Assembly: GCA_008632985.1 (NCBI GenBank)
Contig: QPGO01000355.1
Span: 1 to 43,701 of the forward strand
DNA from: Psammoneis japonica
Lineage: Eukaryota
DNA: 43,701 bases
Reading direction: 5' to 3'
The notes beneath the pieces were generated by a model, which worked only from the letters and a program-made list of their open reading frames with translations, was not told the origin of the DNA and searched no databases. The position numbers and the translations under genes are program-made. Shown piece after piece: positions 6,746 through 40,852 of the stretch (positions within the stretch are counted from its first letter, which is position 1; each line of letters opens with the position of its first letter).

Positions 6746-9700
6746 AGCAAATGCAAGACTGAAATGCAGTTTTTTAGTCATGAATGTCAACAACACTTGC
6801 AGCCGGGGTTTGCTCATTTCCGTTGAAATTGTGTGATGTCGCACATTTCAGCAGATTGCCCAGATGGCACTGCAAACACCCCACACATGTCAGGCACGCA
6901 ACTCCTGCACATCTCAAACAAACCTCACACACACCACACAACTGCCCCACACAGGCCTGGCACACTTGCTGTGCACACCTTGCACATGTGTTGCTCACAT
7001 CTTTTGCACATGCCACGCACATCTTTCAAACATTTCATGCATGTGTCGCGCACATTTCAAGCCCTGAGGTGCAACAAAACAGTTGGCAAACTGCCGCTTC
7101 AAATTGCTCACAAAAACAGCGGGACTGCCATCACATGTGTTCATGATGGACACGTGTTTCATTGTTGGCTCTCCCCTCCAACTTGCAATTTCAGAATCAT
7201 CTTTTCTGTCAGCAAGGATCAGCTCTGAAACAAAAACAGAGTGCAACAGAAGTGACTCATTGCATGAGACGTTGACAAGTCTCGCTGAAGTGGTGGGTCT
7301 TTGACTCCAAGGTCAGCGTCAAGCAACACTCTTTTCTTGTTGCCCTCTTCTGCTGTTGGTGCTTGGCTGCCTCCACCCAATGGGGCGCCCCCTTCTTTAG
7401 AAGCTGAGTGTGCACCTTGATGATGCCAATCATCAAATTCTGCGCTCCAACTTGCTCCATGGCTTGCAATGGTCTCTGCCTCTTCACAAGACACAAATTG
7501 TCAATCACTCTCCAATTTGATTGTGTGTTCCAGCAAACGGGGCAATTCTTGGATGATGCGGTCTGCCTCTTTTGCTGAAGGCATCACAATTTCTTTTGCA
7601 CCAGAAAAGTCTGGTTTCAGAATCTCCTGAGAGGACCAGGTCTTGCTGCTCTGAATGAGTGGGCTGTCTTTGTCACAGATCTTGTGTTTCTTTGACTCAT
7701 CAATCAAAGTCTCCACAATGACAAGGAGAGCAGACTGTTTGCATCCAATTTTTCACTGCAACTCTTGTGCCCAAGGTTGTCAAAATGTGCAGTCAAGTGG
7801 CAGCACTTTGAAAAGCATCTGAAATCAATTCCATCTTTGACGAGTTGTTGCGCTCGTCACAGACACATCTTTTGAATGTTTCACACATCTCGCAAACAGC
7901 TTGCAAGCACCTCACACACACATTGCACACATCTCACAAGTGCCAATGCACACACCTTGTGCACATTTTGCAAACACCTCTTGCACACCTTGCACACATC
8001 TTTCAAACTTTTTTGTGCGCATCTTGCGCACATCTCACAAAACCCTCAAATGTGCCACTTCACACAGATCTTGCACACATCTCAAAAACATCTCACACAC
8101 ATCATGAGCACATCTTGTGCGCACCTTGCAAACACCTCCAAAACAGATTGCGATGTGCTCCAGCTGCACATGAACCAAATTGTGCACATGAACAACATTT
8201 GCGCAATTTTTGCGCGATCCCCAACTTGCGATCGATCTTTCACCACCAAAAGCATGGATTTGTGCAAATGCAAATGTTTTGCAACACTGACAACACTCAT
8301 GTGAGTGCTGCAATGTCATTGTCGCTGTGCTGTCTGTGTTTTTCATTGCGTTAAAAGATTGGCAACACAACGGATGATTTTCGGCAAAAATGTTGCCATC
8401 ACTTGGATGTCACCTGAGTGTGTCTTTCTTCGATGCCACTTGGCAGGTTTTCCACCTGCAAAGAAATCTCAGCAAAAACACGCTGACGTGCAATCAGCGT
8501 TGAGTCTGCTGAGGAAGTTTGTGATGCACACCCCACAAAAAACTGTTCAAATGTTCACACTCTGGACACCCACAGAAGCCAACCCGCTTGAGCGTTTTGT
8601 GTGAAAATGCTCCACGCACTTGAAGACACACAATTTACGTTCAAAGTCAATTGTCGTTTTGTGCATCATCTGGGACTGGAGCACGTCTTGCACACATTTT
8701 GCACACATTTGGCAAACATCTCACAAACACCTCACACACAGGCGCCACACACATCTTGCAAACACCTCTCACACACATTGTGCACACATCACAAATGCCT
8801 TGCACACATTTTGCAAACACCTTGCACACATCATTTCAAACTTTTTGCACCCACAAGTCAAACATTTTGCACAAAGCTTGCACACACATCTTGCAAACAC
8901 ATGACACACATTTCACACACATCTGGCAAACATCTCACAAACACCTCATGCGCACACTGCACACCACATGCACACATCCTGCACACCTCGCATGTGTGCC
9001 CTGCAAATTGCTTTCACACACATCTTGCAAAGACACCACGCAAATCAGCCACACAGCTCTTGCACTTGCACACACCTCACACACATGTTGCGCACATCTT
9101 TCAAATGTTTTGTGCACATCTTGCAAATCTGACACACACATTTTGCGTGCATCTCAAACACACACACCTCACACAATGTTGGCCAACATCTCACACACAT
9201 CTCACAAAAACCCCACACACATCTTGCGCACATGTTTCAAACATTTGCGCACATCTTGCGCACACACTGCAAACACCTCACAAACACTTTGCACACATCT
9301 CACACACATTCTGCACACATCTTGTGCACACATCTTTCAAACATTTTGCACATCTCACAAACATCTGTCAAACACCTTGCACACACATTGTGCACATCTC
9401 ACAAATGTCCTGCACACACCTTGCGCACATTGTGCAAACACATCACGTGCATTTTGTGTGCGCATCTTTCATTTGTCCCTCACAAAACTTTTGAACAATT
9501 CATGCACATCTGCAAACACCTCACACACACCACTTCACACACATCTTGCACACATCTCACAAATGTCTTGCACACATCTGGCGCGCATGTTGCGCACATC
9601 TTGCATGCTGACCACACATCTCATGCACACCTGGCAAACATCTCACAAGCAAATTGTGCACATGCTGTGCACATGGACCCAACAGCAGGCCATCAAGTTT

Positions 9701-15690: not shown

Positions 15691-16483
15691 GCAAATGCAA
15701 GACTGAAGTGCAGTTTTTTAAGTCATGAATGTCAACAACACTTGCAGCCGGGGTTTGCTCATTTCCGTTGAAATTGTGTGATGTCGCACATTTCAGCAGA
15801 TTGCCCAGATGGCACTGCAAACACCCCACACATGTCAGGCACGCAACTCCTGCACATCTCAAACATGCCTCACACACACCACACAACTGCCCCACACAGG
15901 CCTGGCACACTTGCTGTGCACATCTTGCGCATGTGTTGCTCACATCTTTTGCACATGCCACGCACATCTTTCAAACATTTCATGCATGTGTTGTGCACAT
16001 TTTAAGCCCTGGGGTGCAACAAAACAGTTGGCAAACTGCCGCTTCAAATTGCCCACAACAACAGTGGGACTGCCATCACATGTGTTCATGATGGACACGT
16101 GTTTCATTGTTGGCTCTCCCCTCCAACTTGCAATTTCAGAATCATCTTTTCTGTCAGCAAGGATCAGCTCTGAAACAAAAACAGAGTGCAACAGAAGTGG
16201 CTCATTGCATGAGATGTTGACAAGTCTGGCTGAAGTGGCAGGTCTTTGACTCCAAGGTCAGCGTCAAGCAACATTCTTTTCTTGTTGTCCTCTTCTGCTG
16301 TTGGTGCTTGGCTGCCTCCACCCAATGGGGCTCCCCCTTCTTTAGAAGCTGAGTGTGAACCTCAATGATGCCAATCATCAAATTCTGCACTCCAACTTGC
16401 TCCGTGGCTTGCAATGGCCTCTGCCTCTTCACAAGACACAAATTGTCCATCACTCTCCAATTTGATTGCGTGCTCCAGCAAAC

Positions 16484-16930
16484 TGCAACACACAGCTGCC
16501 AACAAGAGTCAACGCATCACAGCGACGTGTTGCAGCCTTTAAATGTCACAAAGGGCGTGACAAAAATGACCTTTTGTCTGCACGCATGCTGCATCATGAA
16601 TTCACAGCGGAGTGGTGCATCGCAACCACTGGGCAGGAGGCCAGGGGTTCGAAACCCTGAGTGGGAGTTGTCTGCAGCAACGTTGATCACTGTCGAGCAC
16701 GTGAAACTCTGTGCAGTTCTGCATGTTCCTTCGCATGCACCCACACTGTTCTGCCAAAACCATGCAGTGTCAGCACACATCAGCAAAGAGCCGCACGGGC
16801 GCGCGACACATGGGGAGGAGTGCAACACACAGCCACTGATGAGAGCCAATGTGTCACGGCGACGTGTTGCAGCCTTTAAATGTCACAAAGGGCGTGACAA
16901 AAACAACCTTTTGTCTGCACACATGCTGCA
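16484..16930 (+). mobile_element. TRIM (non-autonomous miniature LTR retrotransposon), 447 bp
   Basis: 110-bp LTRs at 16484-16593 and 16821-16930 with TG...CA termini. PPT GGGGAGGAG at 16812-16820. 4-bp TSD AAAC at 16480-16483 and 16931-16934. The empty site CCAGCAAACGGGGC is present in paralogous module C copies (~7530, ~28372). Confidence 0.95.
16598..16666 (+). promoter_or_regulatory. tRNA-derived sequence / Pol III internal promoter (A and B boxes) inside the TRIM
   Basis: A-box-like CAGCGGAGTGG at 16605-16615 (fits TRGCNNARYGG except first base C) with a D-stem-like GCGG/TCGC pairing. B box GGTTCGAAACCC at 16646-16657. No complete anticodon arm, so not a tRNA gene. Confidence 0.7.
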
Positions 16931-19900
16931 AAACGGGGCAATTCTTGGATGATGTGGTCTGCCGCTTTTTTGCTGAAGGCATCACAATTTCTTTTGCACC
17001 AGAAAAGTCTGGTTTCAGAATCTCCTGAGAGGACCAGGTCTTGCTGCTCTGAATGAGTGGGCTGTCTTTGTCACAGATCTTGTGTTTCTTTGACTCGTCA
17101 ATCAAAGTCTCCACAATTGCATGGAGAACAGACTGTTTGCATCCAATTTTTCACTGCAACTCTTGTGCCCAAGGTTTTCAAAATGTGCAGTCAAGTGGCA
17201 GCACTTTGAAAAGCATCTGAAATCAATTCCATCTTTGACGAGTTGTTTTGCACTCATCACAGACACATCTTTTGAATGTTTCACACATCTCGCAAACAGC
17301 TTGCAAGCACCTCACGCACACATTGCACACATCTCACAAGTGCCAATGCACACACCTTGTGCACATTTTGCAAACACCTCTTGCACACCTTGCACACATC
17401 TTTCAAACTTTTTTGTGTGCATCTTGCGCACATCTCACAAAACCCTCAAATGCGCCACTTCACACACATCTTGCACACATCTCAAAAACATCTCACACAC
17501 ATCATGAGCACATCTTGTGCGCACCTTGCAAACACCTCCAAAACAGATTGCGATGTGTTCCAGCTGCACATGAACCAAATCGTGCACAAAAACTGCATTT
17601 GCACAATTTTTGTGCAATCCCCAACTTGCGATCGATCTTTCACCACCAAAAGCATGGATTTGTGCAAATGCAAATGTTTTGCAACACTGACAACACTCGT
17701 GTGAGTGCTGCAATGTCATTGTCACTGTGCTGTCTGTGTTTTTCATTGCGTTGAAAGATTGGCAACACAGCGGATGATTTTCGGCAAAAATGTTGCCATC
17801 ACTTGGATGTCACCTGAGTGTGTCTTTCTTCGATGCCACTTGGCAGGTTTTCCACCTGCAAAGAAATCTCAGCAAAAACACACTGACGTGCAATCAGCGT
17901 TGAGTCTGCTGAGGAAGTTTGTGATGCACACCCCACAAAAAACTGTTCAAATGTTCACACTCTGGACACCCACAGAAGCCAATCCGCTTGAGCGTTTTGT
18001 GTGAAAATGCTCCATGCACTTGAAGACACACAATTTGTGTTCAAAGTCGATTGTCGTTTTGTGCGTCATCTGGGGCTGGAGCACGTCTTGCACACATTTT
18101 GCACACATTTGGCAAACATCTTACAAACACCTCACACACAGGCACCACACACATCTTGCAAACACCTCTCACACACATTGTGCACACATCACAAATGCCT
18201 TGCAAACATTTTGCAAACACCTTGCACACATCATTTCAAACTTTTTGCACCCACAAGTCAAACATTTTGCACAGAGCTTGCACACACATCTTGCAAACAC
18301 ATGACACACATTTCACACACATCTGGCAAACATCTCACAAACACATCACGCGCACACTGCACACCACATGCACACATCCTGCGCACCTCACATGTGTGCC
18401 CTGCAAATTGCTTGCACACACATCTTGCAAACACACCACACAAGTCAGCCACACAGCTCCTGCACATCTCCAGTGCCTCAGACATGCACAAGGTGTTTGT
18501 GAGATGTGTGTCTGGTGTGTGTGGAGCATGAGTGAGGTGATTTGTCAAAGCAAGAGCCGCCTGCAAAACAGTTGTGGAACAAACTTTGTTGGCACGTTTT
18601 GCAGTCATTGTGCTTGTGCTCAGCTTTCCAGGAGCTTTCTCATGCAAAGTGCATCCAACCCCACATTTGCAGCCACATTCTCCAGTGTGAACCCCGGCGC
18701 TCATCAGCATCTCAACAATGTTTGATGGCACGACACTCTTGCACCATGAGAGTCTTTTGAGGGCCAAAGAGTGTGCACAAAGCTGAGCAAACAGGGACAG
18801 GATGAGATGGATCTCTGCTGAACACCTTTTTGCAGATGGAGACAGCAAGAACCTTTCATGATCAAACCTTCTGAGTCAGCAAAATCTTTGTTGGGTTGAC
18901 CAAACTCCTGCTGTGCTTGAAACATCTTGCACACACCTCACACACAGGTTGCACACATCTTTCAAATGTTTTGTGCACATCTTGCAAATCTGACACACAC
19001 ATTTTGCATGCATCTCAAAAACACACACCTCACACAATGTCGGCCAACATCTCACACACATCTCACAAACACCCCACACACATCTTGCGCACATGTTTCA
19101 AACATTTGCACACATCTTGCACACACACTGCAAACACCTCACAAACACTTTGCACACATCTCACACACATTCTGTGCACATCTTGTGCACACATCTTTCA
19201 AACATTTTGCACATCTCACAAACATCTGTCAAACACCTTGCACACACATTGTGCACATCTCACAAATGTCCTGCACACACCTTGCGCACATTGTGCAAAC
19301 ACATCACGTGCATTTTGTGCGCGCATCTTTCAATTGTCCCTCACAAACCTTTCAGTGCAACAGGAGCAGCTCATTTCGAGAGACTTTGACAATGCCAGCT
19401 GAAGCAGCGGGTCTTTGACTCCAATGTCAATGTCCAGCAACATTCTTTTCTTGTTGTCCTCTTCCGCTGTTGGTGCTTGGTTGCCTCCACCCAATGGGGC
19501 GCCCCTTCTTTAGAAGCTGAATGTGCACCTTGATGATGCCAATCATCAAATTCTGCACTCCAACTTGCTCCACGGCTTGCAATGGTCTCTGCCTCTTCAC
19601 AAGACACAAGTTGTCTGTTGCTCTCCAATTTGATTGTGTGTTCCAGCAAACGGAGCAATTCGTGGATGACACGGTCTGCCACTTTTGCTGATGGCGTTGC
19701 AGTTTCTTTTGCACCAGAAAAGTCTGGTTTCAGAATCTCCTGAGACCAGTTCTTGCTGCTCTGAATGAGCGGGCTGTCTTTGTCACAGATCTTGTGTTTC
19801 TTTGACTTGCCAATCAAAGTCTCCACAATGACGCAGAGAATGGACTGTTTGCATCCCATGTTTTCACTGCAACTCTTGTGTCCAAGGTTGTCAAAATGTG

Positions 19901-22892: not shown

Positions 22893-23339
22893 TGCAGCAT
22901 GCATGCAGACAAAAGGTTGTTTTTGTCATGCCCTTTGTGACATTTAAAGGCTGCAACACGTCACCGTGATGCATTGACTCTCATTGGCAGCTGCGTGTTG
23001 CACTCCTCCCCATGCACCACGCGTCCATGCGGCTCTTTGCCAACATGCACTGACACTGCACGGTTTTGGTGGAACAGTGTGGGCATGCACGAAGGAACAC
23101 ACAGAACTGCACAGAGTTTTGCGCATTCGACAGTGATCAACGTTGCTGCAGACAACTCCCACTCAGGGTTTCGAACCCCTGGCCTCCTGCCCAATGGCTG
23201 CGATGAACCACTCCGCTGTGAATTCACAGTGCAGCATGCACGCAGACAAAAGGTTGTTTTTGTCATGCCCTTTGTGACATTCAAAGGCTGTGGCACATCA
23301 CTGTGATGCATTGACTCTTGTCAGCAGCTGCATGTTGCA
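22893..23339 (-). mobile_element. TRIM copy 2, 447 bp, independent insertion in the opposite orientation
   Basis: LTRs at 23230-23339 (5') and 22893-23002 (3'). PPT complement CTCCTCCCC at 23003-23011. 4-bp TSD CAGG at 22889-22892 and 23340-23343. Empty site AGCTTTGCAGGAGC at ~11271-11284. Confidence 0.95.
23157..23225 (-). promoter_or_regulatory. tRNA-derived A/B-box sequence inside TRIM copy 2
   Basis: Reverse complement reads CAGCGGAGTGGTTCATCGC...CAGGGGTTCGAAACCCTG. Confidence 0.7.
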
Positions 23340-34329: not shown

Positions 34330-35300
34330 AACAGCAAAGAGAGGGTGGGGAAATGACATGATGGCCCCACCTTCTGGAAAATGATCACTGGGTGACACAA
34401 AAATCGCAGGACAACTTTGTTCCCCACCAAGCAAGAAGCCAAACTGCTGCCACCTTTGAAAAATGATGTGACTCCTCAGAAGTGCAAATGACTCTAGCCA
34501 AAAGTTTTCCAGAGGCAAAATGTTTGGGTTGGTTGGGCTGCAGCCAAATCAACTCACACAAGCCAGACCTTTTGCAGCCACGATGAAGGCACTTGTGCCC
34601 ACTCCCTCTCAAGGGAACATGAGAGCTGTGCCCTGCACAACTCCCACTGTGGTGTGTGCTGCAGAAAAGCTGGCATTGCCAAATGACTCTGTTGCCAAAT
34701 GTTTGTGTTGCCTCTCTTTGCTGGTCAAAGCAACGATGACCAGCTTCTCTTGCTGAGAACTTTCTGAGGCTCTGGAGCTGCAAAAAACTTTCTCCAAAGC
34801 AGGCCCTTTTTCAGCTTCTTGCAATCATGCAACACAACTCATGCCCACACAAACATGATGCCATTGATGGATCCACATTCACGGGATGTTGCAGCACCAG
34901 TGAACAGGGCTGCGGCAAAGATGAGTGTTGTGACAGCAGCTTTAAATGGGGCGGTCTGCTGTGTGCGTGCATGTGTTGAGACCTGCCAAAACGACATGTT
35001 GATGGATCAGAAGCCTTTGCAGGTTTTCACTGGAACACCAAAAATGAGCTCTCCAAGCTGTCCATCATCATTGGGGGGGGGGGGGGGCTCCTCTTCAACA
35101 GCCGCCAACCCCACTCTGTTGGAGAACATTTCGACCCAAGCCCTTTCCCCACCCTGCAACACCAGCAAGTTTTCAACCACCTTGATGGCGTTCTTCACGT
35201 GCAATTTTGCAGAACTGCCTCAAATGAGATGACCATCCTTCATCTGGATCTCATCGATGTCCACTCCTCGAACATCGGAGTCGTTTCTCCCATTCGTTTC
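34330..35300 (-). pseudogene. Possible decayed minus-strand gene remnant at the compartment border
   Basis: Protein-like stretches (DSDVRGVDIDEIQMKDGHLI*GSSAKLHVKNAIKVVENLLVLQGGERAWVEMFSNRVG; TTLIFAAALFTGAATS) broken by TGA stops and frameshifts. Family not recognised. Confidence 0.3.
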
Positions 35301-35317
35301 TCTCTACGAGTCGTGCA

Positions 35318-36817
35318 ATGACGTCATCTACGACCGATCGACTTCAGTCGTGTCGCAAGAGAAGAGCGCGATCCAACGCATTTCAGCGAGCTTGTTGTTC
35401 GGGGCAGAAGCAAAAGGCAAAAGATAGGATGTTGTCGTTGTTGTACAGCAGTGCTATTGCATCGCGAGTCTCGTGGGTAACCGAGAGGATGACGAAATGC
35501 AAAGAATTACTCTTTATTCTTGTGGGCATCGGTCTCATGCGCCAGCTATCGAACCAGTCTCTCTTTGAATACCTTCAGTCTTGTGTTGATAACAACATGA
35601 CTGCGGTCGAAGTTGTGCCGCCCACGAAGCGAAAGCCCAAAAACGAATTGAAGTTTCGTGTTTGTAATAGTGCCGACAAAACGAATAATGTAACTCTGCC
35701 CTCGGCATCACTGGACAATGAGGGAGTATCGTATCAGTTCTGTTTGAATTGCAAAATGGACGCACAGGAGACCTTTGGAGACATTACGTGCGGGCAACGT
35801 GCCTTGTTTTTGGAGCAATCCACAAACTACAATTATTCCACTCCTGAACTTGCGATTCGAGCGGTTGTTGCTGAATCACCCAAAAGTTGTTGCCAACAAA
35901 TCCCTGAGAAACGAAAAACACGAGATGCTGGAGTTCCGGGCACAATTGGGGATGAATCGAACACCATTACGGCGTGGTGTATTTTGGGAGGCAGCAACGC
36001 GTCCACGTGGAAGGGGTTTTCCCATTCGGCTGAAGCCCTTGTACCTTGTTGGAGCTACTTTTGTCGTGTACGAGAACGTTTGCCGGAATCGAAATTCGGT
36101 ATTTGGTTTCTGCCGCCACAAGACTCGACCTTTCGCAGTCACATTGAAAAGAGTGGGTGGGTGGGGGACTTTCTACAAAGATTCGAGTTTTTATACAACT
36201 TTGGTAGCAATGAACCGCCCAATTTGTCATGGTATTATCGACCAGAGAAGTCTTGGTTTCAAGATCCATCTGACGCAACCCTTCTTTCTGAGGTCATCTT
36301 TCGAGATACAAGTTCTGAGAATCTCGTCAGCCAGACAATGAATCAGACTGATACACTCCGTATAGGCCTCGTGCAGCGACAGGGGCATCGTCGCAACATT
36401 TCCAATTTGCAAGAGATCCAACAACAAATCAAGTCATACTATCCTGATGCAACAGTGGAGTGGGCCGAAATGGAGGACATGTCGTTCATGGAACAGGCGT
36501 CGTATTGGCACCGCCAAGATGTTATAGTTGCCGCCCATGGTGCCGCCATGACGAATGCATTGTTTATGCGACGCGGAACGGCGGTCGTGGAAATCTTTCC
36601 CATTCACTATTATGTATTCATGTATCAACGACTCTGTCAAAGTATGGACGTGAATCATTTTGCTTGGATTGACGATGGGATTCCGTACCCGGAATATGAC
36701 TATTTAAAGCATGCTTCGTCTCGTTTCCGATTGAGATCAACTCTATTGACTCCCCCAGTTTGGCGAATCATGGACCTGGTGCATCAAGCAGTCAATGCAA
36801 GCAAAGGGATGCACTAA
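35318..36817 (+). CDS. Glycosyltransferase family 61-like (DUF563) protein, intronless; probable start at ATG 35429 or 35489
   Basis: 499-aa ORF with normal Tyr content. C-terminal GT61-type signature R...RRNISN...MSFMEQASYWHRQDVIVAAHGAAMTNALFMRRGTAVVEIFP. Hydrophobic LLFILVGIGLM after 35489 fits a type II membrane anchor. Confidence 0.85.
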   Translation: MTSSTTDRLQSCRKRRARSNAFQRACCSGQKQKAKDRMLSLLYSSAIASRVSWVTERMTKCKELLFILVGIGLMRQLSNQSLFEYLQSCVDNNMTAVEVVPPTKRKPKNELKFRVCNSADKTNNVTLPSASLDNEGVSYQFCLNCKMDAQETFGDITCGQRALFLEQSTNYNYSTPELAIRAVVAESPKSCCQQIPEKRKTRDAGVPGTIGDESNTITAWCILGGSNASTWKGFSHSAEALVPCWSYFCRVRERLPESKFGIWFLPPQDSTFRSHIEKSGWVGDFLQRFEFLYNFGSNEPPNLSWYYRPEKSWFQDPSDATLLSEVIFRDTSSENLVSQTMNQTDTLRIGLVQRQGHRRNISNLQEIQQQIKSYYPDATVEWAEMEDMSFMEQASYWHRQDVIVAAHGAAMTNALFMRRGTAVVEIFPIHYYVFMYQRLCQSMDVNHFAWIDDGIPYPEYDYLKHASSRFRLRSTLLTPPVWRIMDLVHQAVNASKGMH

Positions 36818-39167: not shown

Positions 39168-40852
39168 ATGAATGGTTCTTGGGCAGTTCGATTTGTGTTT
39201 TTCCTGATGTTCGCATCTGGATTTTCTCCACCAAGATCACCTCATTTTTTCGACACGTCCTTGAGTGTTACCAGCGAGCAAACAGTGGACGAGAAGCAGA
39301 AACAAGACAATTTTGTCATTACCGACATTCTTCGAATTCCGGATGAGGTTGTTGTTCCGACACTTGCTCCAAAGAATGGTTGCAACGTTGGAAACCGCAC
39401 TTGTCTCCAACTCCCACAAACGTCACTCTGCCCACCTGCCTCGTTTTGATGCAACCCGACCTGTATCCGACAATGTCTCGAGCCAAAAAAGCAATACGAC
39501 GCGGCAAAATTCTATTTCATCCCCCATCCACATCCTTCAATGCCTCTTGTGCCATTCGTGCAAGAGCCGACACGCGAATACACCCCCAAATGTGGATTGC
39601 CAAACGTCAGTATCAACCTTCACGGGGTAATGTGGGATATCGGGGATTGAGTTATGCTAGACCGTGGGGTGTGGGCTTCCTGTTGTTATGAAGATGAACA
39701 AATGGCAATCGGTAGTATAGTTAGAGTGATATCGTTTCTTTTTGTGACATTGCTATACAAGTTTCCATCCTTGCGTCTCACATAGTTGAAAAATTGAAAT
39801 CTCTGAACCCTTACGGTAGTCAATAAACCATCCGGAATGATTGGCTACTCACATACAAAGGGAGGATTTGATAATAACTCTGTCAAACGGTATGTTTTCT
39901 AATGATAATGGATACTGCGAAGCGCTCTTGACTCAAACTATTAACGTTTTGTGTTGTTTTTCATTTTACAGAATTGCACCACACGTCTTGATGCAACCGT
40001 CGGTGGACGACGCCTTGGATTGGCCCGTACCGGTCATCGTCTCGACTTGGCAACTTGTGGCTTGTTGGTGATTGCCAAGACACAATCGGCAGCGGTAAGC
40101 TTGGCCCATCAATTTGCCACTCGCCAAGTCACCAAAACCTATCGTGCCATTTTGAATGGAATACCACAGACAAATAGTAATCATGTCAGCAACGCGTGTA
40201 ACGATGAGTTGACTGCAAAACTCGACATGCAAGACAGTGTGTATGATTGGAATGTGATTGATTATGACATCAATGACAAGCCGGCATTGACTCTTTGGAG
40301 AGAATTGAGCAGATCAAGATGCATGGCGGCCCGCAACAATACTGTGACACTAGTCGAGTTTCGTCCATTCCATGGGCGAAAGCATCAACTAAGGAGACAT
40401 GCAGTGAGTAATGTGTTTTATTTCTAGAGCTTTGGCTCGGTAAGATGTCAACGCATTATAACGCTTCGACTCTTTTCTTATTTTAGGCTGAGGTGCTGAA
40501 ATGCCCAATTGTCGGTGACATGCTATACGACGATGACAGTCAAGGTGCCATTCATATGAGAAAACAAAACGGCAAGAGCATTTATCTTTGTTCCAATGCC
40601 ATTTCACTCGAGCATCCCACGGGAGCCGTCGACGTGGATGCGTCGAGGACGGCAAATTCCACGCTATTCAACAAGGACGGTCGACTGTGGGTTGAAGCAG
40701 AGATCTCTGTACCGAAAAGGTTCGATAAGTTTATCAAACAAGAAGAGAGGCGAATGAACAAGTACGAAAAGTGGATGATGCGTGAGGGATTAGCGTGCTT
40801 ATGGGATGTTTACCAAGTTACAAAAGACTACGATTTTCGGAAAATTGATTAG
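39168..40852 (+). CDS. RluA/RluD-family pseudouridine synthase, probably plastid-targeted; frameshifted as assembled (assembly errors or pseudogene)
   Basis: Motifs YEDEQMAIVNKPSG, HRLDLATCGLLVIAKT, GRKHQLRRH and CPIVGDMLY, plus S4-like TMSRAKKAIRRGKI. Introns 39712-39819, 39890-39971 and 40404-40486 are GT-AG and join these motifs in frame. N-terminus MNGSWAVRFVFFLMFASG/FSP resembles the diatom signal peptide plus ASAF motif. About four -1 frameshifts are needed. Alternative ATGs at 39123 and 39135. Confidence 0.85.

Follow-up and report, generated by a model that had tools for sequence, protein, structure and literature searches.

How does an LTR retrotransposon begin reverse transcription when no TGG follows its 5′ LTR, and what might a tRNA-derived promoter do just inside that LTR? 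Both questions are raised by a 447-nt element that occurs twice in contig QPGO01000355.1 of the diatom Psammoneis japonica (assembly GCA_008632985.1), the whole 43,701-nt stretch of which was analysed and is referred to here as the window. An initial annotation, made from the letters alone, had described a TRIM with a tRNA-derived Pol III promoter where the primer-binding site (PBS) should be.

The element has the build of a TRIM: 447 bp in all, 110-bp LTRs, a 227-bp interior without coding capacity and a polypurine tract (PPT), GGGGAGGAG, that directly adjoins the 3′ LTR and is nearly invariant among 78 full-length copies. The two copies in the window (Table 1) are 86% identical to each other, and their LTR pairs differ at 14 sites in copy 1 and 12 in copy 2, by transitions only. 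Paralogous tandem-repeat units near window positions 7535, 28377, 2834 and 11278 keep the empty site with a single TSD copy, so the two insertions are independent. This bears out the initial description of two separate 447-bp insertions with 110-bp LTRs, a PPT and 4-bp TSDs. Both sit in a tandem array whose multi-kb units abound in an 11-bp minisatellite (window 1-33000); ordinary genes lie further on, at 35228-36817 and 39945-40852 (glycosyltransferase 61; pseudouridine synthase).

Table 1. Coordinates of the TRIM copies in the window and of the second TRIM family elsewhere in the genome
Feature	Position	Strand	Remark
Copy 1, whole element	16484..16930	+	
Left TSD AAAC, copy 1	16480..16483	+	Empty paralogous sites carry one copy
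5′ LTR, copy 1 (110 bp, TGCA..TGCA)	16484..16593	+	TTTAAA, TATA-like, at LTR 55-60 (16538-16543); T4 at LTR 89-92 (16572-16575)
1-nt spacer and 12-nt palindromic putative priming site	16594..16606	+	Palindrome 16595-16606; TpA-mutated in copy 1
tRNA-derived segment, degenerate; length 70 nt, or 72 nt in one subfamily	16598..16667	+	Local scores best for Asp/Glu
Pol III A box	16605..16615	+	First 2 nt are the palindrome's last 2; T8 changed to C in copy 1
Predicted hairpin, 6-7 bp	16611..16630	+	Loop holds between-box subfamily variation
Pol III B box GGTTCGAAACC	16646..16656	+	Within T-arm-like hairpin
Polypurine tract GGGGAGGAG	16812..16820	+	
3′ LTR, copy 1	16821..16930	+	T4 at 16909-16912, first T4 3′ of promoter
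Right TSD AAAC, copy 1	16931..16934	+	
Copy 2, whole element	22893..23339	-	TSD CCTG (element strand)
5′ LTR, copy 2	23230..23339	-	
Palindrome, copy 2	23217..23228	-	
A box, copy 2	23208..23218	-	
B box, copy 2	23167..23177	-	
PPT, copy 2	23003..23011	-	
3′ LTR, copy 2	22893..23002	-	
Second TRIM, five copies (L298-L302)	G000, C74:24135-24746, C57:196717-197321, C26:51533-52131, C16:172144-172750, C35:241504-242089	-	

Across the genome (91.4 Mb, 597 contigs) the family numbers ~250-320 copies. The search gave 321 candidates for the element (40 scored) and 598 for the LTR query, with 172 exact junction matches against 1 in the control and 251 A+B-box matches against 3; a metagenome scan with the TRIM head returned 0 matches. 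Among the 78 distinct full-length copies a 4-bp TSD is exact in 68 and present in 75 when transitions are tolerated, and a 5-bp TSD in none. Because LTRs and a PPT are combined with a TSD of fixed 4-bp length, the copies were inserted by integrase and not by target-primed reverse transcription. One tandem TRIM array (LTR-interior-LTR-interior-LTR) lies beside inverted fragments at G000:C26:363500-366200, an arrangement that is rare among the copies seen.

The family has been heavily altered at TpA. The observed/expected ratio of TpA is 0.00-0.05 in the repeat block of the window (1-33000) and 0.3-0.6 in the gene-bearing part from ~36000; with a TA-rich natural copy as reference, transitions per 100 amount to 40 at TpA, 5 at CpG and ≤4 elsewhere. 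The same signature is described, in passages of a recent report, for integrated viral DNA in Bigelowiella (10.64898/2026.01.13.699255). This hypermutation explains why the initial annotation contained two differing readings of the post-LTR letters. At the ApT step of the LTR end (16593-16594; element positions 110-111), which is not a TpA, A>G is found in 13 and T>C in 24 of the 78 copies, and these changes are a second hypermutation context. TpA inside TTTAAA is mostly spared, with 8 and 12 changes per 78 copies in the two LTRs versus 42-77 at most other TpA, which may be a context effect or protein protection. A special protection of the CpG in the B box was considered and rejected, since with 3 changes in 78 copies it does not stand out from other CpGs.

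Read with this in mind, the apparent lack of a canonical PBS is half correct. No TGG follows the LTR, as had been noted, but the site is not missing: the post-LTR letters are the TpA-mutated form of a T plus a perfect 12-nt palindrome, TATGAATTCATA, which is intact one base after the LTR in 12 natural copies (control, 1) and has a computed duplex energy of -11.6 kcal/mol. The palindrome is probably the equivalent of a priming site, and the proposal that a tRNA-like piece has taken the place of the PBS fails, the piece merely overlapping the palindrome that stands there.

The host's Gypsy elements have the same design. Among 36 loci around RNase H matches, taken from 150 listed, 32 have an LTR pair; in these a palindrome 0-1 nt after the LTR is exact in 15 and transition-tolerant in 30, the two exceptions have poorly defined LTR ends, and none starts with TGG. 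Metagenomes supplied 79 related reverse-transcriptase loci, 33 of them covering the expected region; in 32 of these 33, CA and one base are followed by a 12-nt palindrome, which takes 14 different sequences (control windows, 0/79). What is conserved across this Gypsy clade is self-complementarity, the sequence itself being free. Throughout this broad clade a 10-12-nt palindrome replaces the tRNA PBS, and it was seen in host families with 4-bp and with 5-bp TSDs.

Conventional sources of a primer did not fit the TRIM. Priming from a tRNA 3′ end was rejected: the post-LTR site matches the 43 host tRNA genes (a set lacking Ile, Tyr and some others) no better than it does shuffles, the best tRNA-complementary match being 6 nt, the shuffle level. 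In Tf1-type self-priming the PBS is complementary to the first bases of the transcript, in the LTR; this too was rejected, the 16 nt after the LTR having a complement of at most 4 nt anywhere else in the element, LTR included. The earlier suggestion that the element supplies its own primer is likely to hold via the palindrome, as across the Gypsy clade, but not via the tRNA-like part, where the complement is 4 nt. Searches of mainly open-access literature found no palindromic priming mode described in Gypsy elements and no experiment on palindrome priming for any element, and passages of PMC6317226 and PMC2806351 do not mention a palindromic PBS. Recurring across a broad Gypsy clade in at least 14 sequence variants, the palindromic site suggests a priming mode undescribed in Gypsy elements in the literature searched.

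The A and B boxes were scored with matrices built from host tRNA genes, against a null of 1500 dinucleotide shuffles. TA-intact copies reach 26.6 bits, close to the host tRNA median (~27) and above the shuffle maximum of 17.6 (0/1500 reach the TRIM score), with an A-B spacing of 41-43; both window copies score 20.3 bits, lower because T8 is mutated to C. The boxes lie at element positions 122 and 163, in the interior only, and the LTR alone scores -7.8 bits, which upholds the placing of the tRNA-derived boxes in the internal domain. Around the PBS, 32 Gypsy relatives score ≤14.1 bits, which makes the boxes an acquisition of the TRIM. The A box shares 2 nt with the palindrome and requires it to end in TA, an ending found in 1 of the 32 relatives, and the next base is C, not G, in 25 of them; the join of the tRNA piece is therefore placed at the end of the palindrome. 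An ordinary PBS without conserved boxes had been named in advance as the result that would speak against this reading; the copies have instead the palindrome, together with boxes that score above chance.

Only part of a tRNA is recognisable here. Host tRNA-Asp or Glu align collinearly with the segment (local scores 51-59 versus a shuffle maximum of 50), and these two score best among host tRNAs without the scores singling out a donor isotype. Likeness is limited to the boxes, the variable loop and the T-arm, and a cloverleaf is absent: ARAGORN found no tRNA gene in the window and, at a relaxed threshold, one among 12 TA-intact copies, while Rfam gave no tRNA match in the window and no family at E≤10 for a TA-intact copy. 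The tRNA-like segment first described is thus genuine in its boxes (26.6 versus 17.6 bits) but not in its fold. The 3′ half of the A box pairs into a predicted hairpin unlike a tRNA D arm (95% of cells paired), and with no cloverleaf either, the idea of a tRNA mimic was abandoned. This hairpin was counted in 46 of 68 copies (10 copies unparsed), an undercount because the anchor is a TpA-mutable base; covariation of the hairpins amounted to no two-sided change in 13 sequences. Among host tRNA genes, most appear single-copy outside a tRNA-Thr/Ala-like cluster with varied anticodons and a shared body at G000:C310:35097-37551. The host genome also holds many silicon transporter genes (up to 697 bits), one of them triplicated in a 1511-aa frame at G000:C38:226311-230342, a gene content that points to a diatom.

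Within the family (78 copies), transversions and indels per 100 are 1.57 and 3.13 between the boxes and 0.12 and 0 in the B box; transversions are 0.58 in the A box and 0.12-0.20 in the LTRs. Conservation of the boxes does not exceed that of the LTRs, which gives no sign of selection on them within the family. The proposed SINE/TRIM hybrid found no counterpart either: the head of this TRIM is on 95 of the first 100 listed A+B matches (of 251), and a free tRNA-headed SINE2 was seen neither among those 100 nor in a search for other A/B-box repeats.

Dependence on Gypsy, the other part of the initial picture, is borne out by the 4-bp TSD, the LTR ends and the priming-site design, all common to host Gypsy families. 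The best candidate for the helper is a Gypsy family with 379-bp LTRs (L125), whose first 8 LTR bases, 9 of the last 10 and 4-bp TSD are those of the TRIM, and whose palindrome differs from the TRIM's by paired changes. BLAST of the TRIM against the 36 host and 79 metagenome Gypsy loci gave no similarity and no autonomous element with its LTR or interior; of the autonomous partner that had been sought, the matching LTR ends and TSD length were found, but not the LTR or interior sequence. One locus with the same LTR and palindrome (L182), considered as this partner, is a TRIM copy split by a Gypsy insertion, and a supposed relative (L210) was an unrelated chance match. At G000:C160:138500-158300 the insertions are nested, a TRIM being split between its A and B boxes by a member of the 379-bp-LTR family that itself holds a Copia-like element.

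In yeast, Pol III starts 18-20 nt upstream of the A box, and by this rule the start in the TRIM would fall ~10 nt 3′ of the T4 in the LTR. T4 is the first T-run 3′ of 19 of 43 host tRNA genes; in the element it occurs only at LTR 89-92 (78/78 3′ LTRs, 76/78 5′ LTRs), with a further T4 in two copies. A Pol III review gives type-2 A-B spacing and T4 termination, and in the passages used here no start distance (PMC11346459). Since the predicted start falls downstream of T4, a transcript ending at the next T4 would have no R region and would be unable to rebuild the 110-bp LTR. Retrotransposition would then depend on read-through of T4, which would give an R of 5-10 nt, on transcription starting earlier, or on a genomic RNA made by Pol II.

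A search of RNA runs returned two metatranscriptome runs from two studies, with shares of 0.19 and 0.06, and none with at least half of the words. Two RNA contigs of depth ~3, from mixed samples, cover positions 1507-1681 and 1498-1765 of a TRIM locus (L174). They begin +5 and -5 from the LTR end, 9 nt apart, leave the upstream LTR uncovered and do not reach the 3′ LTR; such contigs show neither strand nor transcript start or end, and their DNA content is possible. Neither has a listed TpA-type change, and T8 is kept in 13 of 95 listed genomic heads (counted by eye). The more diverged contig has 13 substitutions and 15 gap letters in 257, with the divergence in its 3′ part; its A box is free of listed changes, and its B box shows a single one, which falls on a degenerate position. 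A 36-nt RNA piece on the element flank in one run (X1) was set aside as a chance fit. That the contigs fit a Pol III start at the LTR end is a weak hint, and with it the suggestion that the element may be Pol III-transcribed is plausible.

The search for further repeats with A/B boxes (25 matches against 19 in the control) yielded a second TRIM family: five copies of 586-612 bp with 152-bp LTRs and a 5-bp TSD exact in four, and seven matches in all. Its promoter is split: the A box lies in the 3′ end of the LTR, a canonical PBS that matches the 3′ end of the host initiator tRNA-Met over 11-12 nt comes next, and the B box (33.1 bits) follows inside the interior. Every LTR holds a single T4, whose end is 9 nt ahead of the A box; under the 18-20 nt start rule transcription would begin 5-7 nt upstream of this T4, and R would be ~10 nt. 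The family is young. A common origin of the tRNA-like parts of both TRIMs found no support: their score of 52 exceeds the shuffle maximum of 49, yet host tRNAs reach 48-58. In both families the B box lies directly behind the PBS, which leaves a complete promoter at the 5′ LTR alone. That two differently primed TRIMs share this placement is the strongest indirect case for a function.

We hold with moderate confidence that the element is a palindrome-primed, Pol III-driven TRIM mobilised by Gypsy. A Ty3/Gypsy element of diatom type would move it in trans; the anatomy, TSD and priming-site design of the TRIM are observed, and the helper is a candidate. The minus strand would be primed without a tRNA by the 12-nt palindrome one base behind the LTR: two element RNAs may pair via the palindrome and one of them, cut at the palindrome's 3′ edge, could prime the other. 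TFIIIC on the boxes would set a Pol III start in the last bases of the 5′ LTR, and only that LTR would fire because the boxes lie outside the LTR. The predicted Pol III RNA would comprise palindrome, interior and PPT and run into the 3′ LTR, with T4 as sole terminator, a course to which the RNA contigs point weakly. The terminal redundancy needed for reverse transcription could arise if the polymerase reads through T4 or begins the RNA 10-20 nt farther upstream.

A further version, which we consider unlikely, gives the 21-nt stretch of palindrome and A box a double role as self-complementary priming site and promoter. One-period RNAs would prime each other, needing neither a host tRNA nor a Pol II promoter, and a full two-LTR copy would be made with little or no redundancy, by an end-to-end jump or on a circular template. 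If true, this would, with the second family, make a TRIM class in which the Pol III promoter becomes whole only by spanning, or lying behind, the 5′ LTR boundary.

An ordinary Pol II TRIM is a possible explanation, though on balance a doubtful one. Its genomic RNA would start in the LTR behind the TATA-like TTTAAA, which would solve the R-region problem, and the tRNA piece would be a passenger relic, an RNA structure (packaging or dimer hairpins) or a TFIIIC-bound boundary. Box conservation no higher than that of the LTRs agrees with this, as does the retention of a hairpin unlike a D arm while its loop varies. However, the hairpins lack any two-sided change, the boxes score like those of working tRNA genes, the RNA contigs start at the LTR end with the LTR uncovered, and the second family has the same B-box placement with another primer system. 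Rather improbable, in our view, is a division of labour, in which Pol II would make the genomic RNA and Pol III an abundant short RNA with the palindrome at its 5′ end, cut to a primer of ~12-20 nt that acts Tf1-like in trans. Such an RNA needs no R region, the predicted start and both contig ends fall within ~10 nt of the palindrome's 5′ end, and the palindrome duplex amounts to -11.6 kcal/mol; against this, autonomous palindrome-type Gypsy elements have no A/B boxes, so Pol III is dispensable for priming, and the second family has boxes yet primes on initiator tRNA-Met. Half-tRNA priming on the initiator tRNA-Met anticodon loop, comparable to Ty5, copia and, as reported in passages of Kojima 2024 (PMC10886601), fungal Helenus, is barely credible, and the palindrome series has largely refuted it. 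Complementarity to that loop does exist over the first 6 nt behind the LTR, but 300 shuffles give 6 nt more often than any other value (host tRNA set without Ile, Tyr and some other isoacceptors). A single tRNA could not pair with all 14 different palindromes of the relatives, and reports of this mode concern Copia with 5-bp TSDs.

We return to the palindrome-primed, Pol III-driven reading to place the element among known systems. Helenus belongs to the TRIMp3 and, as described by Kojima (PMC10886601), has tRNA-like sequence in both LTRs and a tRNA-complementary PBS, in fungi, animals and a lycophyte. Like Helenus, the diatom TRIM is <1 kb and has a PPT and conserved tRNA-derived A/B boxes without a functional tRNA, and it shares the 4-bp TSD of animal Gypsy-dependent Helenus. 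Unlike Helenus as there described, its boxes are internal, single-copy and overlap a palindromic non-tRNA site; it lacks both the LTR-borne tRNA sequence and a PBS that could pair with a tRNA 3′ end or anticodon loop. With a Pol III promoter sequence of small-RNA-gene origin inside a TRIM, it is best read as a new variant of TRIMp3 and not Helenus, set apart by the published description. Cassandra and Ajax are the 5S-derived TRIMp3 (PMC10886601; PMC10853983) and likewise hold a Pol III promoter inside a TRIM, which according to these sources is of type 1, in the LTR, with a tRNA PBS; here it is of type 2, outside the LTR, with no evident R region, and a TA-intact copy had no Rfam match to 5S rRNA-derived sequence. 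A Cassandra Pol III RNA with an 18-nt terminal repeat can retrotranspose (PMC10886601). Literature searches, mainly of open-access papers, found no diatom TRIM and no TRIM with an internal tRNA-type promoter, and the latter is absent from passages of PMC13570524 and PMC10853983.

For the priming site the nearest published case is the Conserved Hairpin Site (CHS) carried by GalEa Ty1/copia elements in fungi, likewise a palindrome at the PBS position with no tRNA-complementary site (PMC5445492). As described, the CHS belongs to Copia, spans 9-10 nt including the last A of the LTR, is near-fixed in sequence and has a complementary arm 12-41 nt downstream, whereas the TRIM's site is Gypsy-type, 12 nt long and free in sequence if self-complementary, with no second arm (4 nt). 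Tf1/sushi, Tcn1 and TAR elements are self-priming (PMC6317226) and resemble the proposed mechanism in taking a primer from the element's own RNA, but differ in that the LTR complement of the TRIM's site is 4 nt. In its degenerate tRNA head, whose A/B boxes lie close to the 5′ end of the predicted RNA, the TRIM recalls SINE2, but it has no tail, and no free SINE with this head was found among the A+B matches listed or the other A/B-box repeats.

Annotation based on the PBS misses palindrome elements, more so under TpA hypermutation. With near-intact copies available, the 447-bp non-coding element is a small substrate for testing promoter and priming together. Pol III TRIMs described so far hold the promoter within the LTR and are thereby assured of the terminal repeat that strand transfer needs. 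A promoter placed behind the PBS departs from this logic, and the ends of the element's RNA therefore test the minimal redundancy for LTR reverse transcription.
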